The translations under genes were made by a program, and so were the position numbers. Positions 728 to 28,973 of a DNA stretch of 64,000 bases are shown one piece after another. The notes under the pieces were generated by a model that was given only the letters and a program-made list of their open reading frames with translations, searched no databases and was not told the origin of the DNA. This stretch comes from Vicinamibacterales bacterium. GTDB lineage: Bacteria > Acidobacteriota > Vicinamibacteria > Vicinamibacterales > UBA8438. Each line of letters starts with the position of its first letter. The first letter of the stretch is position 1. Location: assembly GCA_965247955.1 (NCBI GenBank), contig OZ252042.1:1968323-2032322 (forward strand), given 5' to 3'.

Positions 728-951
728 TGGGACGGTGACCGTGTCTCTTCAAGAGATGAGGATACGCTGGTGACCGCACAAGAAGTCACCGCCCCGTGGA
801 ATTGGTCGCGTCACGCGGCGAAGATTGGTCGGATTCGCTCGAAGGCGAGGGCATGTAATTGTACTAATGAAAGCGGATTTTGTGATTTTGTCTTGGAGGA
901 ATGGGTAGTGGTCTAGTTTGAAAAGCGCGGCCCCCTGGACAGATCGTCTCG

Positions 952-1185
952 ATGTGCGACAATTGGGTCGTGCCGACTCGGGCGAAAAAGAAACGGCCTC
1001 GCGATCCGAACCAGTTGGGTAAACTCGTCGTCGACATTGCGACGGGCGCAGCCCAGGACTCCGCTCCTCCTGGCCCCCAACGGGCAGGTGGCCTAAAGGG
1101 TGGTCCAGCCAGGGCGAACCGGCTGACGCCGATAGAGCGGACGGAAATCGCGAAGCTGGCTGCCCAGGCACGCTGGAAGAAATAG
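952..1185 (+). CDS. small basic protein (RPRDPNQL / RANRLTPIERTEIAKLAAQARW motifs), passenger gene
   Basis: 77-aa ORF with Lys/Arg-rich ends. The motif pattern resembles a widespread small protein often found near TA loci. Confidence 0.45.
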   Translation: MCDNWVVPTRAKKKRPRDPNQLGKLVVDIATGAAQDSAPPGPQRAGGLKGGPARANRLTPIERTEIAKLAAQARWKK

Positions 1186-1192
1186 CTGCTAA

Positions 1193-1645
1193 CTACTGCT
1201 GGCGTTCTGCAACATCTTCGCTGAAATCCAAGATTATCTGGATTTCGGGCACCTTCTCCTCGTTCATATCGTTGTAGACAATCACGTCGGTATTCAACTG
1301 AGCGCATTCGCCAACGATGTGCTCCCGACGTTGCGCAAAGGCTTTCTCCATGTGCTCATGGGGAGCGAATCCCATGATTGCCCAGAAGGACTGTGGCTTG
1401 CCGTCCTTGGTGGTCCGAACGGCATGGTTGACCCTATAGCGGTGACCCTTATGGGTGTCCAGCTCCTGCGCCAGGGCCTTGGACATTTGGTTCGCGAGAA
1501 CCTCGCACGGATCGATTGGAGGTGGCGTTGCGAGCAAGCCCTGGTTGATGGCCCAGTCAACGGCGTCCCGAGTACGAGATGGTGCATGTTCGTGCTCTGT
1601 CTCGTACAAGTGGAAAATGGCCTGCAGTGTCTCGTTCTTGGTCAT
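1193..1645 (-). CDS. hypothetical protein, third gene of the passenger operon
   Basis: 150 aa with no family recognised. Starts 17 nt after the stop of the XRE-peptidase gene on the same strand. Clean codon usage. Confidence 0.6.
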   Translation of the reverse strand: MTKNETLQAIFHLYETEHEHAPSRTRDAVDWAINQGLLATPPPIDPCEVLANQMSKALAQELDTHKGHRYRVNHAVRTTKDGKPQSFWAIMGFAPHEHMEKAFAQRREHIVGECAQLNTDVIVYNDMNEEKVPEIQIILDFSEDVAERQQ

Positions 1646-1662
1646 TGGTCAAGCCTCTGGAT

Positions 1663-2790
1663 TCATAGCGACACGGGAATGGTCTGCCCCCATCCATCGG
1701 CCATCGCCGAGGGCAGCACGAATTGACGTATTTTGACAAGGTGACGCGTTAGGTAATCCCAGCGGTCCATTCGCTTTTGCATCTGACCAATGATCAGTCC
1801 AGGGTGCCGCTGATGGAGCTTCGCAAAAGCCACAACATCCTTCTCGTAGTAGTACGGCTTCTTTCTCAGTAGGAAAGAAGCAAGCTTGTCTCGCGGGGCA
1901 CAGAAATCTGCCGCAGCCGCATTCGCAGCGATTTCCTCCGGGAGAATCGTGACCCCGGCGCGGGGTGCTCCAGCCAAGTCTTCGTCGATTACTTCCTCGT
2001 CCTGGCCGTCTCTCCGAAGAACGTGCTCGATCTCATGGCGCAGGACAAACCAGAAGTTATCGATGGTGTCTCGCTGCAGCGACATGCCGATGACGGGCGA
2101 GTTGTCGTTGAGCCAAAAACACACTCCGTCGATTCTCGCCTTCGGTAGTTTCTCAACGACGACGAACCGGATGCCGCATTCGGCCATGATTCGCGGTACA
2201 TGGCGTGTCTCTTCAGGAGCCCGAAGCAACGATTCCAGATCGCCGAGGGCCGTCTTCAACGCCTGCTTGGAGTACGCCGGGACCGTGATCGATTTGGCAA
2301 TCTGACGCACGCGAAAGAGCCATGCCAGTTGAGGTGCGGGAATGTGCCGTTCCTCATAGCGGCTCTTCTTCGCCGCGTGCGACAGGTACGGAATCTCGCT
2401 GGCGTCGGCAACCTCAAAGAAGCGCATAAACTGCGACTCCAACAGGGTCGTATCAGACGGTTCGATCCAACCCCGGCGAATCATCTCTCTGACCGGGAAT
2501 GCGCTCTGCATGTTCCGCCGCGCGGGGATGCTCGGGTCCGGGGTCTTGGCCTGCGACAGGTCGTAAGCCTGTTGGAGGTTCGCAAAGAACTCTGCGGACA
2601 CATCGAACGCCTCGCCGAGCGCCCGAGCCATATCGGCGCTGATCCCGCGCTTTCCAGACAGAATCATGTTCACGATCTGTTCCCTACAGCCAAGAATGAA
2701 CGCAAGGTCGCGCTGGAGCCAGCCACGTGTCTCCATCTCCTCCTTGATGTAGGAACCGGGGTGTTCGATCCACTCAGCATTCACAGTCAT
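1663..2790 (-). CDS. XRE HTH fused to an ImmA/IrrE (COG2856) zinc metallopeptidase domain
   Basis: 375 aa. N-terminal HTH (LQRDLAFILGCREQIVNMILSGKRGISADMARAL). HEIEH zinc motif (LRHEIEHVL) in the C-terminal half. Starts 9 nt after the HigB-like ORF. Confidence 0.8.
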   Translation of the reverse strand: MTVNAEWIEHPGSYIKEEMETRGWLQRDLAFILGCREQIVNMILSGKRGISADMARALGEAFDVSAEFFANLQQAYDLSQAKTPDPSIPARRNMQSAFPVREMIRRGWIEPSDTTLLESQFMRFFEVADASEIPYLSHAAKKSRYEERHIPAPQLAWLFRVRQIAKSITVPAYSKQALKTALGDLESLLRAPEETRHVPRIMAECGIRFVVVEKLPKARIDGVCFWLNDNSPVIGMSLQRDTIDNFWFVLRHEIEHVLRRDGQDEEVIDEDLAGAPRAGVTILPEEIAANAAAADFCAPRDKLASFLLRKKPYYYEKDVVAFAKLHQRHPGLIIGQMQKRMDRWDYLTRHLVKIRQFVLPSAMADGWGQTIPVSL

Positions 2791-2799
2791 AAGTCACCC

Positions 2800-3093
2800 T
2801 TAGTGGTAGTCTTCAACTTGTAGGATGGTTACTCTGTTCGGCTTGGATTCTGTGTCGATTGTAAAGACCAATCGCCATTGGTCGTTAATCCGAATCGAAC
2901 GTTCTTCACGTCGTCCTTTCAGCTTCTCGTAGTGCAGGCTCTTCCAGTTCCGCAGCGTTCGCTCGTCAGGTGCCTGTCGAATCACATGTAGTTTTCGCCT
3001 CAACGCTTTGATGACAGCAATCGGCAGTCGGGTCTCGGCGGCACGGTCCGTCTCGACAAGCGCAAGGGACGTGTCGCGGAACTCGATCTCCAT
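2800..3093 (-). CDS. higB: HigB-like (plasmid maintenance system killer) toxin
   Basis: 97 aa. The C-terminal RINDQWRLVF...V.ILQVEDYH pattern is typical of HigB/RelE-fold toxins. First gene of a 3-gene operon. Confidence 0.7.
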   Translation of the reverse strand: MEIEFRDTSLALVETDRAAETRLPIAVIKALRRKLHVIRQAPDERTLRNWKSLHYEKLKGRREERSIRINDQWRLVFTIDTESKPNRVTILQVEDYH

Positions 3094-3159
3094 CCAATCA
3101 CCGAAAACAGTATAGAGAAATACACTACTGAACGCAACTCGTTAAATTATCTTTTATGC

Positions 3160-3188
3160 TTGACATATCAGGTCTGGTTGATTACACT
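3160..3188 (+). promoter_or_regulatory. candidate sigma70-type promoter for the IS transposase (leaderless geometry)
   Basis: TTGACA (3160-3165), 17-nt spacer, TACACT (3183-3188). The ATG at 3196 lies 7 nt after the -10 element and has no SD. Confidence 0.4.
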
Positions 3189-3195
3189 TCGTCTC

Positions 3196-4038
3196 ATGAA
3201 TCGGCTAGACACGAAACGGCGGGCACAAGTCGTCGCCGCCCTAGTCGAAGGCAACAGCCTCCGGGCAACTGCCAGGATGACGGGCGTGGCTCGGATGACC
3301 GTCGAGAAGCTGCTGCGCGACTTGGGCGCAGCTTGTGCCGCGTACCAGGACGAGCATCTGCAGAATCTGCCCTGCCGCCGTATTCAGTGCGACGAGATCT
3401 GGTCGTTCGTGTACGCCAAAGCGAAGAACGTCGAGAGTGCGAAGGACGCGCCCGACGTGGCGGGCGACGTGTGGACTTGGACGGCCATTGATGCCGACAC
3501 CAAGCTGGTGCCATCGTGGCGCATCGGCTCGCGTGACTTGGCGACGGCCTATGACTTCATGCACGACCTTGCTGACCGGCTTCGGCACCGCGTGCAGCTC
3601 ACGACAGACGGCCACAAGCCCTACCTGGAGGCCATCGAGAGCGCGTTCAATTTGGACGTGGATTACGCGGTGCTCCAGAAGATTTACGGCGCGGACCCGC
3701 AGCCGCAGAAGCGGTACAGCCCTGCCAATTGCCTGGGCTACGACGTGAAGACGGTCACCGGCGAGCCGAACCCGAAGCACATCTCAACCAGCTTCGTTGA
3801 ACGGCAGAATCTCACGATGCGGATGAGCATGCGGAGATTCACGAGGCTGACCAACGCCTTCTCAAAGAAGGTCGAGATGCACGCGCACTCGGTGGCGCTG
3901 CATTTCATGCACTACAACTTCGTGAAGATCCACTCGACGCTGAGGACGACCCCGGCGCAGGCCGCTGGCGTGACCGACCGGCTGTGGGAAATTTCGGACC
4001 TCGTGGAATTGCTCGAAAGTACCGAGTCGTCAAACTAG
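3196..4038 (+). CDS. IS1-family DDE transposase (single-ORF type)
   Basis: 280 aa from ATG 3196; the ORF-track start at 3160 is a TTG inside the -35 element. N-terminal HTH. The C-terminal FVERQNLTMRMSMRRFTRLTNAFSKK motif is characteristic of IS1 transposases. The stop codon lies inside the right IR. Confidence 0.85.
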   Translation: MNRLDTKRRAQVVAALVEGNSLRATARMTGVARMTVEKLLRDLGAACAAYQDEHLQNLPCRRIQCDEIWSFVYAKAKNVESAKDAPDVAGDVWTWTAIDADTKLVPSWRIGSRDLATAYDFMHDLADRLRHRVQLTTDGHKPYLEAIESAFNLDVDYAVLQKIYGADPQPQKRYSPANCLGYDVKTVTGEPNPKHISTSFVERQNLTMRMSMRRFTRLTNAFSKKVEMHAHSVALHFMHYNFVKIHSTLRTTPAQAAGVTDRLWEISDLVELLESTESSN

Positions 4039-4054
4039 ACCACTACCAAGGAAT

Positions 4055-4156
4055 CGGCCCCTAATGTAGCGGTTTGACCGAAATACTCCCGTTTGGAATG
4101 TAGCGGTTTGACCGTTGAAAACTCCCACAAATCACATGATTCTGTGGAAATCATCC
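4055..4156. repeat. ori-like region A, proximal part: two iterons plus conserved box
   Basis: AATGTAGCGGTTTGACCG at 4063-4080 and 4097-4114, 34 bp apart. An adjacent ~45-bp box (4115-4156; minus strand GATTTCCACAGAATCATGTGA..GTTTTC) is homologous to boxes at 10243 and 23378. Lies 240-330 bp downstream of the repA stop. Confidence 0.6.
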
Positions 4157-4392: not shown

Positions 4393-5367
4393 CTATTCCA
4401 CGAGGCGCAGCTGCGAGGGCGGGATACGAGAGGGTGAGGGAGAGAGCAGCAACGCGCCCTTTGGCGTCGAGTAGTGAAGGTCTGGCCAGGCGCTTTTAAT
4501 TTTCGTCAGCTCCCGAAGGCACTTCGTACGAAAGTCGTTCACGATGTTCGTATCGCTTACGTGGGCCGGGTTCGATCCGAACTGACGGTACAGTCGCGGC
4601 CACGTGAGGCGCAGCGGGCGCTTCAACGTGAACGTCCGGTAGGCGAGCCACATGTAGAGATCGAGGCCCAACGAGGATCGCTTCATAGTCTTCAGGATGT
4701 GCAGGTCGAGCGGCACGGGATGGCGAATGACTTCCTCGAAAAACTTCTCACCAAGTTCGATCTTGCTCTCCCACAGCGTGCGGTCGTCGGGACGCCGCGG
4801 ATGCCACCAAAACTCTGTCCGATCGGCGACCAGCGAATTGACGCTCACTTCGCCGTGCTCGTGTTCATAGACCAACTGGACATAAGCATTAAACAGCCGC
4901 CGCATCTGCTCTTGGAGCCGACTACGCACCGCGCCGCCGCTGTTGTAGACACCCACACTCCGCATGAACGCCGAGAGCGAATCGCCGAGGATGAGCTCGC
5001 GGCTTTGCGTCCGCACCGCTTCGGTGCAGACCCACGCCAGGAGCAGGCGCGGGAAGTTACCGTAGGGCAATTTGTTGTCAACCCCAGCGGTCATGGCTAG
5101 AGTGAGCGGCCCATTGCGCCGGACGTGCTGCAGGCGGTCGCCGGGGTCGGTGCGCGGCAACGAACAGAGCGCGAGCATCCGCGCCATGAAGCCCAGGTCG
5201 GCGTCCACTTCACTGACCGCGACGAGCTGCGTTACCTGGTCGAGTTGGGTGAAGTGGCGGCGAGCCTGGGGCGCGCGTTCTCGGCGCGTGGGCACCAGGA
5301 CGCCGGGCAGGTCGACACCGGCGACCAACTCGCCGAGGGGCACGAACCCGTCTCGTTTACGCGCCAC
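4393..5367 (-). CDS. repA: plasmid replication initiator RepA (RepA_C type), apparently intact
   Basis: 324 aa. Motifs LALCSLPRT, RNGP.TL and LPYGNFPRLLLAWVCTEAVRTQ are shared with three paralogues in the window. Only full-length copy. Confidence 0.8.
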   Translation of the reverse strand: MARKRDGFVPLGELVAGVDLPGVLVPTRRERAPQARRHFTQLDQVTQLVAVSEVDADLGFMARMLALCSLPRTDPGDRLQHVRRNGPLTLAMTAGVDNKLPYGNFPRLLLAWVCTEAVRTQSRELILGDSLSAFMRSVGVYNSGGAVRSRLQEQMRRLFNAYVQLVYEHEHGEVSVNSLVADRTEFWWHPRRPDDRTLWESKIELGEKFFEEVIRHPVPLDLHILKTMKRSSLGLDLYMWLAYRTFTLKRPLRLTWPRLYRQFGSNPAHVSDTNIVNDFRTKCLRELTKIKSAWPDLHYSTPKGALLLSPSPSRIPPSQLRLVE

Positions 5368-20299: not shown

Positions 20300-20532
20300 A
20301 ACTGCCGCGGGGCGTTTCCGCCCGCGAACTCATCCGCGCACTCAAAGCCGATGGATTCGTTCATGTCCGAACGAGAGGAAGCCACCGCAGATTTCATCAC
20401 CCTGATGGTCGCCGCGCTTCTGTGTCCTACCATCAGGAATCCGCACCCCTTCCCATGAACACCCTGCGGAGCGTTATCGTGCTCCAAGCCCGATGGGAAG
20501 AGGACGATCTTCGACGACTGAGACTTCGATGA
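20296..20532 (+). CDS. hicA: HicA toxin
   Basis: SARELIRALKADGFVHVRTRGSHRRFHHPDGR is typical of HicA/YcfA. Confidence 0.75.
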   Translation: MKLPRGVSARELIRALKADGFVHVRTRGSHRRFHHPDGRRASVSYHQESAPLPMNTLRSVIVLQARWEEDDLRRLRLR

Positions 20533-21752
20533 GTAAAGACGACGAGCACTGCGGCGGGTTCGTGCCCCTCGGCGATATGGCCGGGGCGGTCGACCTGTCC
20601 CCCGCCACGCCCCAAGCCCGGCACCACTTCACCCGTCTCGACCAGATCGACCAGCTTGTTGGCGCGAGCGAAGCGGAACCAGATATCGGCTTCATGGCGC
20701 GGCTGCTCGCGCTGTGCAGTCTACCGCGCACCAATCCAGGGGACCGGAAAGAGTACGTCCGGCGCAACGGGCCATACACCCTGATCATGAGTGCCGGCGG
20801 CCACCCGGCGCGACTGCCCTACGGTATCCTTCCGCGGCTGCTGCTGGCATGGGTGTGCTCAGAGGCGGTACGGACGCAGCGCCGCCAACTGGTCCTCGGG
20901 CGGTCGCTGTATGAGTTCATGCGCAAGCTCGGCATGGAGAATCGAAGCGGGGGCATCAACGGCGAGCGGACGTGCCTCAAGAATCAAATGCGCCGGCTCT
21001 TTCGGTGTTCGGTCCAGCTCGTCTACGTCGAGGCGCAGCATGAAGTAATCGTACAGTCCTTCATTGCAGACCGCGCCGAGTTCTGGTGGGACGCGACGCG
21101 AGACTCCGGGCCGTCGTTGTGGGACAGCACGATCGAGCTTGGCGAGAAATTCTTTCACGAAATCATCGCGCACCCTGTACCGATCGATCTGCACATCCTT
21201 AAGGCGATAAAGCGGTCGCCCCTCGGCCTCGACCTGTACCTCTGGCTCACGTACCGGACGTTCAATCTTAAGACGCCGCTGTGCCTGTCCTGGCGGCAGC
21301 TCTACCGGCAATTTGGCGCGGACCCGGCGCGCGTGACGGCCGGACGCGTGTTCGACGCGAGCCGGGTCCGCGTGATTGACGGAGACACGATCGAGGTCGA
21401 GGGCACGACGGCGACGGTTCGGCTGATGGGGATTGACACGCCGGAGACAAAGCATCCGACGCGGCCGGTCGAGTACTACGGCGCGGAGGCGGCGGCACTC
21501 GCGGAGACGGTGCTATCAGGGATGACGGTAGACCTGACGACAGACCGGACCGGGGACCGGGAGGATGTGTACGGTCGGTGGCTGCGGTACGTCGTGGTGC
21601 GGGGCGTTGATTTCAACGCGGCGCTCGTGCGGGGAGGGTACGCGCGAGCGGTCCGGGGATTTGCGTATGCCCGTCGGGCGGAGTTCATCGGGCTTGAAAA
21701 TGAGGCGCGATCGCGCGGCGTGGGTTTGTGGGAGGCACGAGGGCCGGAGTAG
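20529..21752 (+). CDS. chimeric RepA (C-terminally truncated) fused to a staphylococcal-nuclease (SNase) domain
   Basis: RepA motifs run up to RQFGADPARVT (about aa 270-280). Then VIDGDTIEV...VRLMGIDTPETKHP...YGRWLRYV...GLWE, typical of the thermonuclease fold. Start at ATG 20529 overlaps the hicA stop. Confidence 0.7.
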   Translation: MSKDDEHCGGFVPLGDMAGAVDLSPATPQARHHFTRLDQIDQLVGASEAEPDIGFMARLLALCSLPRTNPGDRKEYVRRNGPYTLIMSAGGHPARLPYGILPRLLLAWVCSEAVRTQRRQLVLGRSLYEFMRKLGMENRSGGINGERTCLKNQMRRLFRCSVQLVYVEAQHEVIVQSFIADRAEFWWDATRDSGPSLWDSTIELGEKFFHEIIAHPVPIDLHILKAIKRSPLGLDLYLWLTYRTFNLKTPLCLSWRQLYRQFGADPARVTAGRVFDASRVRVIDGDTIEVEGTTATVRLMGIDTPETKHPTRPVEYYGAEAAALAETVLSGMTVDLTTDRTGDREDVYGRWLRYVVVRGVDFNAALVRGGYARAVRGFAYARRAEFIGLENEARSRGVGLWEARGPE

Positions 21753-25706: not shown

Positions 25707-25768
25707 GTACGTACTTGTCGGATTGTACTACTTGATCTGTACTACTTGTACGTGTAGCGGTTTGACCG
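25707..25768. repeat. ori-like region A, distal part: GTAC-rich repeats plus third iteron
   Basis: GTACGTACTTGT, then GTACTACTTG twice (inverse orientation of the 23438-23480 cluster), then TGTAGCGGTTTGACCG (25753-25768), immediately before the AAGGAAT/IS junction. Confidence 0.55.
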
Positions 25769-25824
25769 AAGGAATGGGTAGTGGTCTAGTTTGAAAAGCG
25801 CGGCCCCCTGGACAGATCGTCTCG

Positions 25825-26058
25825 ATGTGCGACAATTGGGTCGTGCCGACTCGGGCGAAAAAGAAACGGCCTCGCGATCCGAACCAGTTGGGTAAACTCG
25901 TCGTCGACATTGCGACGGGCGCAGCCCAGGACTCCGCTCCTCCTGGCCCCCAACGGGCAGGTGGCCTAAAGGGTGGTCCAGCCAGGGCGAACCGGCTGAC
26001 GCCGATAGAGCGGACGGAAATCGCGAAGCTGGCTGCCCAGGCACGCTGGAAGAAATAG
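25825..26058 (+). CDS. small basic protein (copy 2)
   Basis: Translation identical to 952-1185. Confidence 0.45.
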   Translation: MCDNWVVPTRAKKKRPRDPNQLGKLVVDIATGAAQDSAPPGPQRAGGLKGGPARANRLTPIERTEIAKLAAQARWKK

Positions 26059-26065
26059 CTGCTAA

Positions 26066-26518
26066 CTACTGCTGGCGTTCTGCAACATCTTCGCTGAAAT
26101 CCAAGATTATCTGGATTTCGGGCACCTTCTCCTCGTTCATATCGTTGTAGACAATCACGTCGGTATTCAACTGAGCGCATTCGCCAACGATGTGCTCCCG
26201 ACGTTGCGCAAAGGCTTTCTCCATGTGCTCATGGGGAGCGAATCCCATGATTGCCCAGAAGGACTGTGGCTTGCCGTCCTTGGTGGTCCGAACGGCATGG
26301 TTGACCCTATAGCGGTGACCCTTATGGGTGTCCAGCTCCTGCGCCAGGGCCTTGGACATTTGGTTCGCGAGAACCTCGCACGGATCGATTGGAGGTGGCG
26401 TTGCGAGCAAGCCCTGGTTGATGGCCCAGTCAACGGCGTCCCGAGTACGAGATGGTGCATGTTCGTGCTCTGTCTCGTACAAGTGGAAAATGGCCTGCAG
26501 TGTCTCGTTCTTGGTCAT
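26066..26518 (-). CDS. hypothetical 150-aa passenger protein (copy 2)
   Basis: Translation identical to 1193-1645. Confidence 0.6.
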   Translation of the reverse strand: MTKNETLQAIFHLYETEHEHAPSRTRDAVDWAINQGLLATPPPIDPCEVLANQMSKALAQELDTHKGHRYRVNHAVRTTKDGKPQSFWAIMGFAPHEHMEKAFAQRREHIVGECAQLNTDVIVYNDMNEEKVPEIQIILDFSEDVAERQQ

Positions 26519-26535
26519 TGGTCAAGCCTCTGGAT

Positions 26536-27663
26536 TCATAGCGACACGGGAATGGTCTGCCCCCATCCATCGGCCATCGCCGAGGGCAGCACGAATTGAC
26601 GTATTTTGACAAGGTGACGCGTTAGGTAATCCCAGCGGTCCATTCGCTTTTGCATCTGACCAATGATCAGTCCAGGGTGCCGCTGATGGAGCTTCGCAAA
26701 AGCCACAACATCCTTCTCGTAGTAGTACGGCTTCTTTCTCAGTAGGAAAGAAGCAAGCTTGTCTCGCGGGGCACAGAAATCTGCCGCAGCCGCATTCGCA
26801 GCGATTTCCTCCGGGAGAATCGTGACCCCGGCGCGGGGTGCTCCAGCCAAGTCTTCGTCGATTACTTCCTCGTCCTGGCCGTCTCTCCGAAGAACGTGCT
26901 CGATCTCATGGCGCAGGACAAACCAGAAGTTATCGATGGTGTCTCGCTGCAGCGACATGCCGATGACGGGCGAGTTGTCGTTGAGCCAAAAACACACTCC
27001 GTCGATTCTCGCCTTCGGTAGTTTCTCAACGACGACGAACCGGATGCCGCATTCGGCCATGATTCGCGGTACATGGCGTGTCTCTTCAGGAGCCCGAAGC
27101 AACGATTCCAGATCGCCGAGGGCCGTCTTCAACGCCTGCTTGGAGTACGCCGGGACCGTGATCGATTTGGCAATCTGACGCACGCGAAAGAGCCATGCCA
27201 GTTGAGGTGCGGGAATGTGCCGTTCCTCATAGCGGCTCTTCTTCGCCGCGTGCGACAGGTACGGAATCTCGCTGGCGTCGGCAACCTCAAAGAAGCGCAT
27301 AAACTGCGACTCCAACAGGGTCGTATCAGACGGTTCGATCCAACCCCGGCGAATCATCTCTCTGACCGGGAATGCGCTCTGCATGTTCCGCCGCGCGGGG
27401 ATGCTCGGGTCCGGGGTCTTGGCCTGCGACAGGTCGTAAGCCTGTTGGAGGTTCGCAAAGAACTCTGCGGACACATCGAACGCCTCGCCGAGCGCCCGAG
27501 CCATATCGGCGCTGATCCCGCGCTTTCCAGACAGAATCATGTTCACGATCTGTTCCCTACAGCCAAGAATGAACGCAAGGTCGCGCTGGAGCCAGCCACG
27601 TGTCTCCATCTCCTCCTTGATGTAGGAACCGGGGTGTTCGATCCACTCAGCATTCACAGTCAT
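26536..27663 (-). CDS. XRE HTH-ImmA/IrrE metallopeptidase fusion (copy 2)
   Basis: Translation identical to 1663-2790. Confidence 0.8.
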   Translation of the reverse strand: MTVNAEWIEHPGSYIKEEMETRGWLQRDLAFILGCREQIVNMILSGKRGISADMARALGEAFDVSAEFFANLQQAYDLSQAKTPDPSIPARRNMQSAFPVREMIRRGWIEPSDTTLLESQFMRFFEVADASEIPYLSHAAKKSRYEERHIPAPQLAWLFRVRQIAKSITVPAYSKQALKTALGDLESLLRAPEETRHVPRIMAECGIRFVVVEKLPKARIDGVCFWLNDNSPVIGMSLQRDTIDNFWFVLRHEIEHVLRRDGQDEEVIDEDLAGAPRAGVTILPEEIAANAAAADFCAPRDKLASFLLRKKPYYYEKDVVAFAKLHQRHPGLIIGQMQKRMDRWDYLTRHLVKIRQFVLPSAMADGWGQTIPVSL

Positions 27664-27672
27664 AAGTCACCC

Positions 27673-27966
27673 TTAGTGGTAGTCTTCAACTTGTAGGATG
27701 GTTACTCTGTTCGGCTTGGATTCTGTGTCGATTGTAAAGACCAATCGCCATTGGTCGTTAATCCGAATCGAACGTTCTTCACGTCGTCCTTTCAGCTTCT
27801 CGTAGTGCAGGCTCTTCCAGTTCCGCAGCGTTCGCTCGTCAGGTGCCTGTCGAATCACATGTAGTTTTCGCCTCAACGCTTTGATGACAGCAATCGGCAG
27901 TCGGGTCTCGGCGGCACGGTCCGTCTCGACAAGCGCAAGGGACGTGTCGCGGAACTCGATCTCCAT
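27673..27966 (-). CDS. higB: HigB-like toxin (copy 2)
   Basis: Translation identical to 2800-3093. Confidence 0.7.
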   Translation of the reverse strand: MEIEFRDTSLALVETDRAAETRLPIAVIKALRRKLHVIRQAPDERTLRNWKSLHYEKLKGRREERSIRINDQWRLVFTIDTESKPNRVTILQVEDYH

Positions 27967-28068
27967 CCAATCACCGAAAACAGTATAGAGAAATACACTA
28001 CTGAACGCAACTCGTTAAATTATCTTTTATGCTTGACATATCAGGTCTGGTTGATTACACTTCGTCTC

Positions 28069-28911
28069 ATGAATCGGCTAGACACGAAACGGCGGGCACA
28101 AGTCGTCGCCGCCCTAGTCGAAGGCAACAGCCTCCGGGCAACTGCCAGGATGACGGGCGTGGCTCGGATGACCGTCGAGAAGCTGCTGCGCGACTTGGGC
28201 GCAGCTTGTGCCGCGTACCAGGACGAGCATCTGCAGAATCTGCCCTGCCGCCGTATTCAGTGCGACGAGATCTGGTCGTTCGTGTACGCCAAAGCGAAGA
28301 ACGTCGAGAGTGCGAAGGACGCGCCCGACGTGGCGGGCGACGTGTGGACTTGGACGGCCATTGATGCCGACACCAAGCTGGTGCCATCGTGGCGCATCGG
28401 CTCGCGTGACTTGGCGACGGCCTATGACTTCATGCACGACCTTGCTGACCGGCTTCGGCACCGCGTGCAGCTCACGACAGACGGCCACAAGCCCTACCTG
28501 GAGGCCATCGAGAGCGCGTTCAATTTGGACGTGGATTACGCGGTGCTCCAGAAGATTTACGGCGCGGACCCGCAGCCGCAGAAGCGGTACAGCCCTGCCA
28601 ATTGCCTGGGCTACGACGTGAAGACGGTCACCGGCGAGCCGAACCCGAAGCACATCTCAACCAGCTTCGTTGAACGGCAGAATCTCACGATGCGGATGAG
28701 CATGCGGAGATTCACGAGGCTGACCAACGCCTTCTCAAAGAAGGTCGAGATGCACGCGCACTCGGTGGCGCTGCATTTCATGCACTACAACTTCGTGAAG
28801 ATCCACTCGACGCTGAGGACGACCCCGGCGCAGGCCGCTGGCGTGACCGACCGGCTGTGGGAAATTTCGGACCTCGTGGAATTGCTCGAAAGTACCGAGT
28901 CGTCAAACTAG
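28069..28911 (+). CDS. IS1-family transposase (copy 2)
   Basis: Translation identical to 3196-4038. Confidence 0.85.
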   Translation: MNRLDTKRRAQVVAALVEGNSLRATARMTGVARMTVEKLLRDLGAACAAYQDEHLQNLPCRRIQCDEIWSFVYAKAKNVESAKDAPDVAGDVWTWTAIDADTKLVPSWRIGSRDLATAYDFMHDLADRLRHRVQLTTDGHKPYLEAIESAFNLDVDYAVLQKIYGADPQPQKRYSPANCLGYDVKTVTGEPNPKHISTSFVERQNLTMRMSMRRFTRLTNAFSKKVEMHAHSVALHFMHYNFVKIHSTLRTTPAQAAGVTDRLWEISDLVELLESTESSN

Positions 28912-28973
28912 ACCACTACCGAAAACCCTAGGTCTCCCGTGTTCGCAACGTCTCTGGTGACAGCCGATTTGTG

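Follow-up and report, generated by a model that had tools for sequence, protein, structure and literature searches.

A putative IS1-family unit transposon with PD-lambda-2-like cargo on both sides of a plasmid-like segment in a Vicinamibacterales bacterium

Architecture of the element and its transposase

Two identical copies of a putative IS1-family transposon lie in a 64,000-nucleotide stretch of contig OZ252042.1 from a Vicinamibacterales bacterium, which is the whole stretch of DNA that we analyzed and which we call the window. Each copy of this insertion sequence (IS) holds a transposase gene and four further genes, and the two copies enclose a plasmid-like segment of 21.7 kb (4048-25776). 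The limits of the element are marked by an 18-bp sequence, GGTAGTGGTCTAGTTTGA, which is found at exactly four sites in the window: 904-921 (+), 4030-4047 (-), 25777-25794 (+), and 28903-28920 (-). The chance level estimated from shuffled sequence is 0.02 matches, and no further site of this kind occurs in the window when up to three mismatches are allowed. The four exact sites form two inverted pairs, which bears out the earlier claim, made in what we call the original prediction, that IS1-like 18-bp inverted repeats surround a multigene unit. The same prediction had placed the unit at 903-4047 with a length of 3,145 bp; a 3-kb unit between perfect repeats is indeed present, but its length from tip to tip is 3,144 bp (904-4047) unless G903 is counted as part of the element.

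The second copy (25770-28920, + strand, with its repeats at 25777-25794 and 28903-28920) is in direct orientation relative to the first and is 100% identical to it. When the blocks 897-4047 and 25770-28920 are compared, 3,151/3,151 positions agree. On the right, this identity stops exactly at the tip of the repeat, while on the left it stops 7 bp outside the tip. The original prediction took the two identical copies as a sign that the unit moves as one piece, and the extent of the identity, reaching to the repeat tips, supports that view. An inner pair of repeats around the transposase alone had been named beforehand as the observation that would speak against a single unit; at up to three mismatches, the window contains none.

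Reading inward from the left, the element opens with its left terminal inverted repeat (IRL; 904-921, + strand), for which the consensus among relatives is GGTAGTGGGTCAGTTTGA. It is followed on the + strand by p77 (952-1185, or from a GTG at 970), the gene for a small, basic, helical protein that we treat below as a core gene. Next come three genes on the - strand that make up the cargo operon. In the order of transcription, these encode a HigB/RelE-like protein of 97 amino acids (aa; 2800-3093), a 375-aa fusion of a Xre/HigA-type helix-turn-helix (HTH) domain to an M78 (ImmA/IrrE) metallopeptidase domain (1663-2790), and p150, an acidic protein of 150 aa (1193-1645). A promoter-like site, TTGACA-17-TACACT (3160-3188, + strand), identified by consensus match only, precedes the transposase gene (3196-4038, + strand), which is a single open reading frame (ORF) of 280 aa with an N-terminal HTH. 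The right terminal inverted repeat (IRR; 4030-4047, - strand) overlaps the transposase stop codon.

The transposase is predicted to be a distant, single-ORF DDE enzyme of the IS1 family with an intact D66/D138/E202 triad. It matches Pfam PF03400 (DDE_Tnp_IS1) with 34.3 bits, above the cut-off of 24.1, and wherever its relatives bear a name in public sources (JGI, NCBI), that name is "IS1 family transposase." Both observations agree with the original prediction, which had called the enzyme IS1 type. D66, D138, and E202 are invariant in an alignment of 57 transposase sequences, in which E202 falls within the IS1-like motif VERxNLTMR...FSKK. A score that counts against close kinship is the 64.3 bits obtained with NCBIfam NF033558 (transpos_IS1), which is below the cut-off of 100, and membership in the IS1 family is therefore distant. 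At least 8,000 relatives of the transposase were found in a large protein collection at E <1e-20, while exact-protein look-ups returned no record for either the transposase or p150.

With IS1 of E. coli and its family, the element has in common the DDE_Tnp_IS1 match, the GGnnnTG pattern of the tips, and the length of the target duplication. The tips read GGTAGTG at both ends and are conserved in relatives; duplications, which are 8-9 bp long in the IS1 type, are 8 bp in relatives and appear in the window as a split duplication that agrees at 7/8 positions. A small inward-reading gene at the left end is another common feature, insA in IS1 and p77 here, and cointegrate formation, known for IS1, would likewise apply to this element. 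The differences lie in coding layout and size. One continuous ORF contains both the element's own HTH and the DDE domain, in place of the classical insA-insB' arrangement with its -1 frameshift. Classical IS1 elements are free of passengers and span ~0.74-1.2 kb (0.77 kb for IS1 itself), whereas the element described here is 3.1 kb long and every sampled member of its clade has a cargo slot. Within the IS1 family, ISfinder distinguishes "single ORF" and "ISMhu11" subgroups, the latter with members of up to ~4.6 kb. A literature search for the name ISMhu11 gave no matches.

The promoter-like site of the transposase agrees with the consensus at 10/12 positions, and the ATG lies 7 nt downstream of it, so that the transposase mRNA would be leaderless. 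This site is located in a 102-bp divergent region that the transposase gene has in common with the cargo operon. The sequence GGTCTGGTTGA between the -35 and -10 boxes was considered as an operator resembling the inverted repeats, and was set aside as a chance occurrence after such a site was found in only 2/64 elements compared with 11/1,240 control windows.

Relatives, the core gene p77, and the cargo

Our comparisons reveal that elements of this kind are very widespread across many phyla. A scan of one genome per species yielded 572 relatives, of which the best 80 loci, at 59-85% identity, were retained; they come from Acidobacteriota, Pseudomonadota, Verrucomicrobiota, Nitrospirota, Chloroflexota, Planctomycetota, and other phyla. 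In 63/80 loci, the end consensus is present on both sides of the transposase, and the units delimited in this way measure 1,817-6,242 bp, with none shorter. Perfect 8-bp direct repeats abut the tips in 54 of the 63 delimited relatives, and three more have 7-of-8 or 7-bp repeats. No target-site consensus is evident among the 54 duplications. Since the duplications surround entire units, it is the whole unit that transposes. Intact units are also known from cultured strains. For example, plasmid p_1 of Mesorhizobium loti 582 (L081, CP050295.1, ~470343-473712) carries a 3,370-bp unit with the duplication CGCTGGTG and the same gene set as in the window, namely, p77, a p150-like gene, a Xre-M78 gene, and the transposase. 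In Acidiphilium multivorum JZ-6, the unit is 2,634 bp long and its duplication is AAGCCGAG, and a further intact element is found at locus L005. A search for near-identical DNA in a plasmid collection gave no match.

These findings bear on two earlier expectations. It had been set down in advance that the unit would be in doubt if no other genome held the passengers inside the repeats; the same genes, within the same repeats and with 8-bp duplications, do occur elsewhere. The original prediction had also regarded a passenger-carrying IS1 as unusual, a view that does not hold within this clade, where 63/63 delimited relatives carry cargo and none is smaller than 1.8 kb.

An argument could be made that the locus is merely an ordinary IS of ~1 kb beside resident genes, with the outer repeats explained by chance or as remains of a second IS. 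Classical IS1 is ~0.8 kb long, and plasmid pDEIPE01 of Deinococcus peraridilitoris has a distant relative (26% transposase identity) that is a plain 1,185-bp IS with GGTAG... ends. Passenger-free relatives exist, then, but outside the GGTAGTG-ended clade. The 63 relatives contain no inner repeat pair around the transposase except for a degenerate left-end remnant in L064 (1565-1586), GACTGTAGGTCAGTTTGAAATT, with its tip replaced, which is situated 16 bp upstream of the transposase. In the window, there is no end-like site near the transposase start, the two copies agree throughout their 3.15 kb and this agreement ends at the repeat tips, and in 54 relatives the 8-bp duplications lie around the whole cargo-bearing unit. 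We find the ordinary-IS explanation scarcely credible. The L064 contig itself is 3.1 kb long, has Xre-M78 and p150-like genes upstream of the remnant, and may represent a rearranged or nested element.

The gene directly inside the left end deserves separate consideration. A profile hidden Markov model found a p77 homologue in 63/64 elements, almost always directly inside IRL and on the transposase strand. This fixed place marks p77 as a core gene and not as cargo, which reduces the four passenger genes of the original prediction to three. The proteins are 71-77 aa long with a pI of 11-11.6. In the window, translation probably starts at GTG 970, giving 71 aa; a promoter-like site lies at 936-963, and this GTG is 7 nt after its -10 box, the same layout as for the transposase. 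The consensus of the family includes RPRDxNQLAKxIVDxATGE, and a search with the profile recovered 14,798 representative clusters. No Pfam or NCBIfam model describes the family, and at E values up to 1 no Pfam model matched any of its members. The predicted structure consists of three helices (predicted local distance difference test [pLDDT], 77) and has no match in the PDB. The location of p77 corresponds to that of InsA in IS1, while no homology to InsA was detected. On the basis of position, charge, and conservation, we predict that p77 binds nucleic acid and acts as an accessory factor or regulator in transposition.

Alternatively, p77 could be a mere passenger, that is, a histone-like or phage-derived DNA-binding protein that came to lie at the left end by chance. 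It is labeled "histone H1" in Mesorhizobium loti, and the motif of its C-terminal half, GGxARAxxLTxxxRxxIAxxAAxxRW, recurs elsewhere: it opens the P63C-domain cargo proteins of several relatives (L017:4830-5882, also L020, L042, L051, and L069) and is also present in the N-terminus of phrog_2384. Yet p77 is fixed in place and orientation in nearly all elements while the genes between it and the transposase vary, and where cargo has been swapped it has diverged in step with the ends and the transposase, which makes the passenger explanation very unlikely. In the Mesorhizobium loti 582 entry, the ends of the element and its 8-bp duplication are without annotation as well.

The middle gene of the cargo operon is, judged by profile comparison, a clear homologue of PD-lambda-2B. 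The 375-aa protein matches the PADLOC model PD-Lambda-2_B at E 4.1e-44 (149.5 bits) over profile positions 62-387 of 402. It also matches NCBIfam antidote_HigA (51.9 bits, cut-off 47.7) and Pfam HTH_3, together with a weak match to Peptidase_M78, and its HExxH motif reads HEIEH at residue 252. The HigB-like gene is on the same strand, 9 bp upstream of the Xre-M78 gene, and its product matches Pfam HigB-like_toxin (37.2 bits, cut-off 27) and phrog_3066, "toxin of TA system" (5e-12). As for p150, its gene is found together with the Xre-M78 gene in at least 10 relatives, and its structure model is confident (pLDDT, 92); Foldseek searches of the PDB and BFVD returned nothing at E <0.08. The GC content of the cargo is 53-58%, compared with 64% for the window.

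In E. coli, the PD-lambda-2 system consists, in this order, of a HigB-like protein, a Xre-HTH protein with a peptidase domain, and a third small protein (PMC9519451). The Xre-peptidase is toxic alone and is neutralized by the HigB-like protein, the third protein is needed for abortive-infection defense, and PD-lambda-2C has been described as related to P4 phage antitoxin (PMC9519451). The operon in the window also has three genes in the corresponding order, with a homologous middle protein (PADLOC E 4e-44), and can be called PD-lambda-2-like in architecture, from which we infer a toxin-antitoxin-like function. It differs from PD-lambda-2 in that p150 has no recognizable fold, that some sister elements have only Xre-M78 and p150, and that the module is inside an IS. 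While p150 sits where PD-lambda-2C sits, no homology between the two was detected, nor was the relationship to P4 phage antitoxin found. Two negative results weigh against the assignment: neither the HigB-like protein nor p150 matched any PADLOC model, PD-lambda-2 models included, even at E up to 10, and p150 had no Pfam (E up to 1, all family members), PADLOC, or PHROG match. The assignment to PD-lambda-2 consequently rests on one homologous gene and on architecture. Of the toxin-type module that had been predicted originally, the HigB-like, Xre-M78, and 150-aa genes are confirmed, and the PD-lambda-2 architecture is an addition to that prediction.

Another interpretation is that the cargo is a plain HigBA-type addiction module, which stabilizes the transposon or plasmid and has no part in phage defense. 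The HigB-like and HigA-like signatures are what such a module would show, the HigB-like protein and p150 match no defense model, and toxin-antitoxin pairs are reported to be integral parts of Tn3-family transposons (PMC7157771). Nonetheless, the middle gene matches PD-Lambda-2_B over nearly its full length, and in PD-lambda-2 it is the Xre-peptidase that is toxic, the HigB-like protein that neutralizes, and the third gene that is required for defense (PMC9519451). Sister elements, moreover, have clear defense cargo in the form of RosmerTA, GmrSD, type IIG restriction enzymes, and an N6/N4 methylase with Mrr. We consider a module devoted to addiction a possible but somewhat unlikely reading of the operon; addiction and phage-defense roles are compatible with each other.

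Throughout the clade, cargo lies between p77 and the transposase, and about 1/3 of the elements have additional cargo after the transposase. The restriction-type cargo includes the N6/N4 methylase with Mrr, MmeI/Eco57I-like (type IIG) enzymes, and GmrSD. Xre-M78 fusions are of two types, one of which is RmrA with RmrT (RosmerTA). Among the proteases are SDH/ClpP-like and Clp proteins, along with a proteasome-like protein that has a membrane partner. Other cargo comprises Fic, PIN, DUF3037, DUF3800, Bro-N, P63C, an AAA ATPase, and a nested IS3-family element. These types are scattered over the transposase tree. For cargo of the PD-lambda-2 type, well-supported branches force at least six changes, and its distribution fits the tree no better than shuffled labels do. 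Furthermore, unrelated cargo is carried by paired elements with 82-84% DNA identity between their transposase genes, and in these pairs homology stops at the 3' end of p77 and restarts at the start of the transposase. The scatter of cargo types and the unrelated cargo within such close pairs indicate that cargo is swapped often.

Individual loci illustrate the range of this cargo. The RosmerTA cargo at L071:4100-5898 was recognized by matches to RmrA (E 6.5e-71) and RmrT (E 5e-14), and a RmrA-type gene of the same cluster is present in four sister elements (L004, L008, L038, and L050). Seven elements carry a proteasome-subunit-like protein (Pfam Proteasome, 7.7e-7), mostly after the transposase (L079:6859-8621, L060, L025, L049, L021, L028, and L057). 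In L079 and L060, it is accompanied by a protein of ~290 aa without a family; no PADLOC model matches either protein, and the two may constitute an undescribed module. A cargo protein of 308-361 aa, found in seven elements (L023:4900-5871 and six others), has a weak SDH/ClpP-like signature (E 3e-4, below cut-off) and no PADLOC match. Finally, one clade member of 4.9 kb contains, within its cargo slot, a nested IS3-family transposase with rve domains (L012:3194-4042).

A plasmid-like segment between the two copies

Between the copies, the 21.7-kb segment has genes for three RepA_C proteins and three ParA-type proteins. One of the repA genes ends at 4393 and adjoins iterons. The iteron sequence, GTAGCGGTTTGACCG, is found only at 25754, 4066, and 4100, at the two ends of the segment. 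When the element is taken out and position 25776 is joined to 4056, the three iterons become evenly spaced, at distances of 33 and 34 bp. The 8-bp flanks of copy 1 are GAGGAATG on the left and AAGGAATC on the right (4048-4055), while those of copy 2 are AAGGAATG on the left (25769-25776) and GAAAACCC on the right. Neither copy has an 8-bp duplication of its own, and the left flank of copy 2 matches the right flank of copy 1 at 7/8 positions.

Metagenomic assemblies contain related arrangements. A contig from run X12 reads GACCGAAGGAAT-CGGCCCCGAA-TGTAGCGG, which corresponds to the joined site free of the element (GACCGAAGGAAT-CGGCCCC). In runs X12 and X13, whose contigs are fragmented and mixed in strain, there are also loose ends at which the left and right ends of the element (903/904 and 28920) are joined to other flanks, and at which the left flank of the window runs past 903 into CCATGCAACGCAACG, a sequence that is not in the window. 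These loose ends indicate that related strains have the element at other sites and have the left flank without the element.

A cointegrate is a structure in which two direct IS copies separate donor and target (PMC7986276). The two copies around the 21.7-kb RepA/ParA segment, on a contig of 2,490,310 bp that also bears the window's transposase, have, as far as the sequence goes, the structure of a cointegrate. As in cointegrates of the IS26/IS6 and IS1 types (PMC7986276), two direct copies separate the fused replicons and the duplication is split over junctions; the difference is that only the plasmid-side junctions keep the duplication here, at 7/8 positions, while the outer junctions mismatch. 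The junctions expected from replicative transposition are identical to those expected from recombination between two copies, so that they do not distinguish the two routes.

Several details of the junctions and of the comparison contig speak against a simple cointegrate. The inner duplication is imperfect, with one mismatch in eight positions, although this mismatch vanishes if G903 counts as part of the element and the duplication as 7 bp long. The contig with the empty site is short, and the metagenome from which it stems contains strain variants. The two outer flanks do not match, which means that the history of the locus includes at least one further step. Lastly, both left repeats have the 7-bp sequence AGGAATG directly to their left (within 896-903 and 25769-25776). 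Homology of the two left flanks was considered as its source and rejected, for the flanks do not align further out.

Some of these details could be taken to mean that there was no cointegrate, and that two independent simple insertions or a segmental duplication produced the arrangement around a segment that was always chromosomal. The single difference between the inner flanks and the lack of a duplication at the outer flanks would fit such a history, and AGGAATG at both left flanks could reflect a sequence preference and not a split duplication. Independent insertions, however, should each carry an 8-bp duplication, as 54/63 relatives do, and neither copy has one. In addition, joining the left flank of copy 2 to the right flank of copy 1 restores a regular array of iterons beside a RepA gene, with 33/34-bp spacing. 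A contig with exactly that joined, element-free sequence exists, and the target duplications of relatives have no consensus. We regard separate insertions or a segmental duplication as distinctly unlikely and retain the cointegrate as our interpretation of the locus.

Two neighboring features are recorded here as observations in their own right. Within the plasmid-like segment, the RepA_C paralogue at 20493-21752 ends in a fused staphylococcal-nuclease (SNase) domain at its C-terminus. Immediately to the left of copy 1 is another toxin-antitoxin-type pair, made up of a Gp49-like protein (DUF891, HigB/RelE type; 20-358) and a Xre HTH protein (365-727).

Interpretation and significance

Taken together, our results suggest that the window contains an autonomous 3,144-bp IS1-family unit transposon that has PD-lambda-2-like cargo and a cointegrate history, a reading to which we assign a probability of about 0.8. 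Its backbone consists of the 18-bp GGTAGTG... repeats, p77 inside the left end, and the single-ORF HTH-DDE transposase at the right end. This backbone is conserved in a large clade that crosses phyla, with a cargo slot between p77 and the transposase and, in some relatives, a second slot after the transposase. The transposase would cut at the GGTAGTG tips and insert the whole unit with an 8-bp target duplication; the chemistry of movement is here carried over from IS1, while relatives show that the unit moves whole and with such a duplication. In this element, the slot holds a three-gene operon that would act as a toxin-antitoxin-like module, guarding the host population against phage and also making loss of the element costly. 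The element was probably active recently. One copy would have sat between two iterons of a RepA-type plasmid-like replicon, and either replicative transposition or recombination of two copies would then have fused that replicon into the 2.49-Mb contig. The outcome would be the two direct copies around a 21.7-kb replicon, that is, the cointegrate.

The element can be compared with several kinds of mobile DNA that carry passengers. A transporter IS (tIS) is an IS derivative with passenger genes (PMC3129680, PMC7986276, PMC9330008). Our element likewise has an IS-type backbone with passengers inside terminal repeats, two identical full-length copies, and relatives with 8-bp duplications that show the unit moving whole. 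In these papers, tIS are individual members of the various IS families, and only one is listed for the IS6 family; in contrast, cargo is carried here by 63/63 delimited elements of a cross-phylum clade that has a conserved accessory gene and defined slot borders. Toxin-antitoxin or defense genes are also regular cargo of larger transposons, in the Tn3 family (PMC7157771) and in Tn7-like transposons, which carry defense cargo (PMC8649781). Those transposons use other transposition machinery and are much larger, whereas the elements described here have one transposase and measure 1.8-6.2 kb.

A more far-reaching view would join these observations. The IS1 relatives with GGTAGTG ends could be undescribed cross-phylum "defense shuttles," in which p77 is a new cofactor or regulator that takes the role of InsA without homology to it, and in which cargo is exchanged through recombination at a pair of fixed borders, one at the 3' end of p77 and one at the start of the transposase. 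Since the cargo operon and the transposase gene are read in opposite directions out of a shared 102-bp region, expression of the transposase could be tied by the Xre regulator to toxin-antitoxin activation or phage attack. If this were true, an attack on the cell would lead the element to jump or to fuse replicons. We offer this combined scheme as speculation and consider it rather unlikely as a whole.

In the searchable literature, we found no description of an IS1 clade in which cargo that includes defense genes goes together with a conserved small gene, and no paper found there links IS1-family elements with defense cargo. IS elements are usually treated as bare transposase genes. Automatic annotation misses the element described here, in that p77 is labeled "histone H1" or hypothetical and the ends are unmarked. 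p77 (~14,800 representative clusters) and p150, the third component of the PD-lambda-2-like system, are abundant protein families without any assignment; the present analysis gives both a defined context, and intact copies of the element are available in culturable strains. In the window, the element had a concrete consequence if our reading holds, as a small replicon would have been fused into a contig of 2.49 Mb. More generally, our findings suggest that toxin-antitoxin and anti-phage systems are routine cargo, across phyla, of an element that has one transposase and measures 2-6 kb, and that this cargo changes quickly. Such an element would be one of the smallest known vehicles for defense genes, and may offer a simple model for how genes of this kind spread among bacteria.

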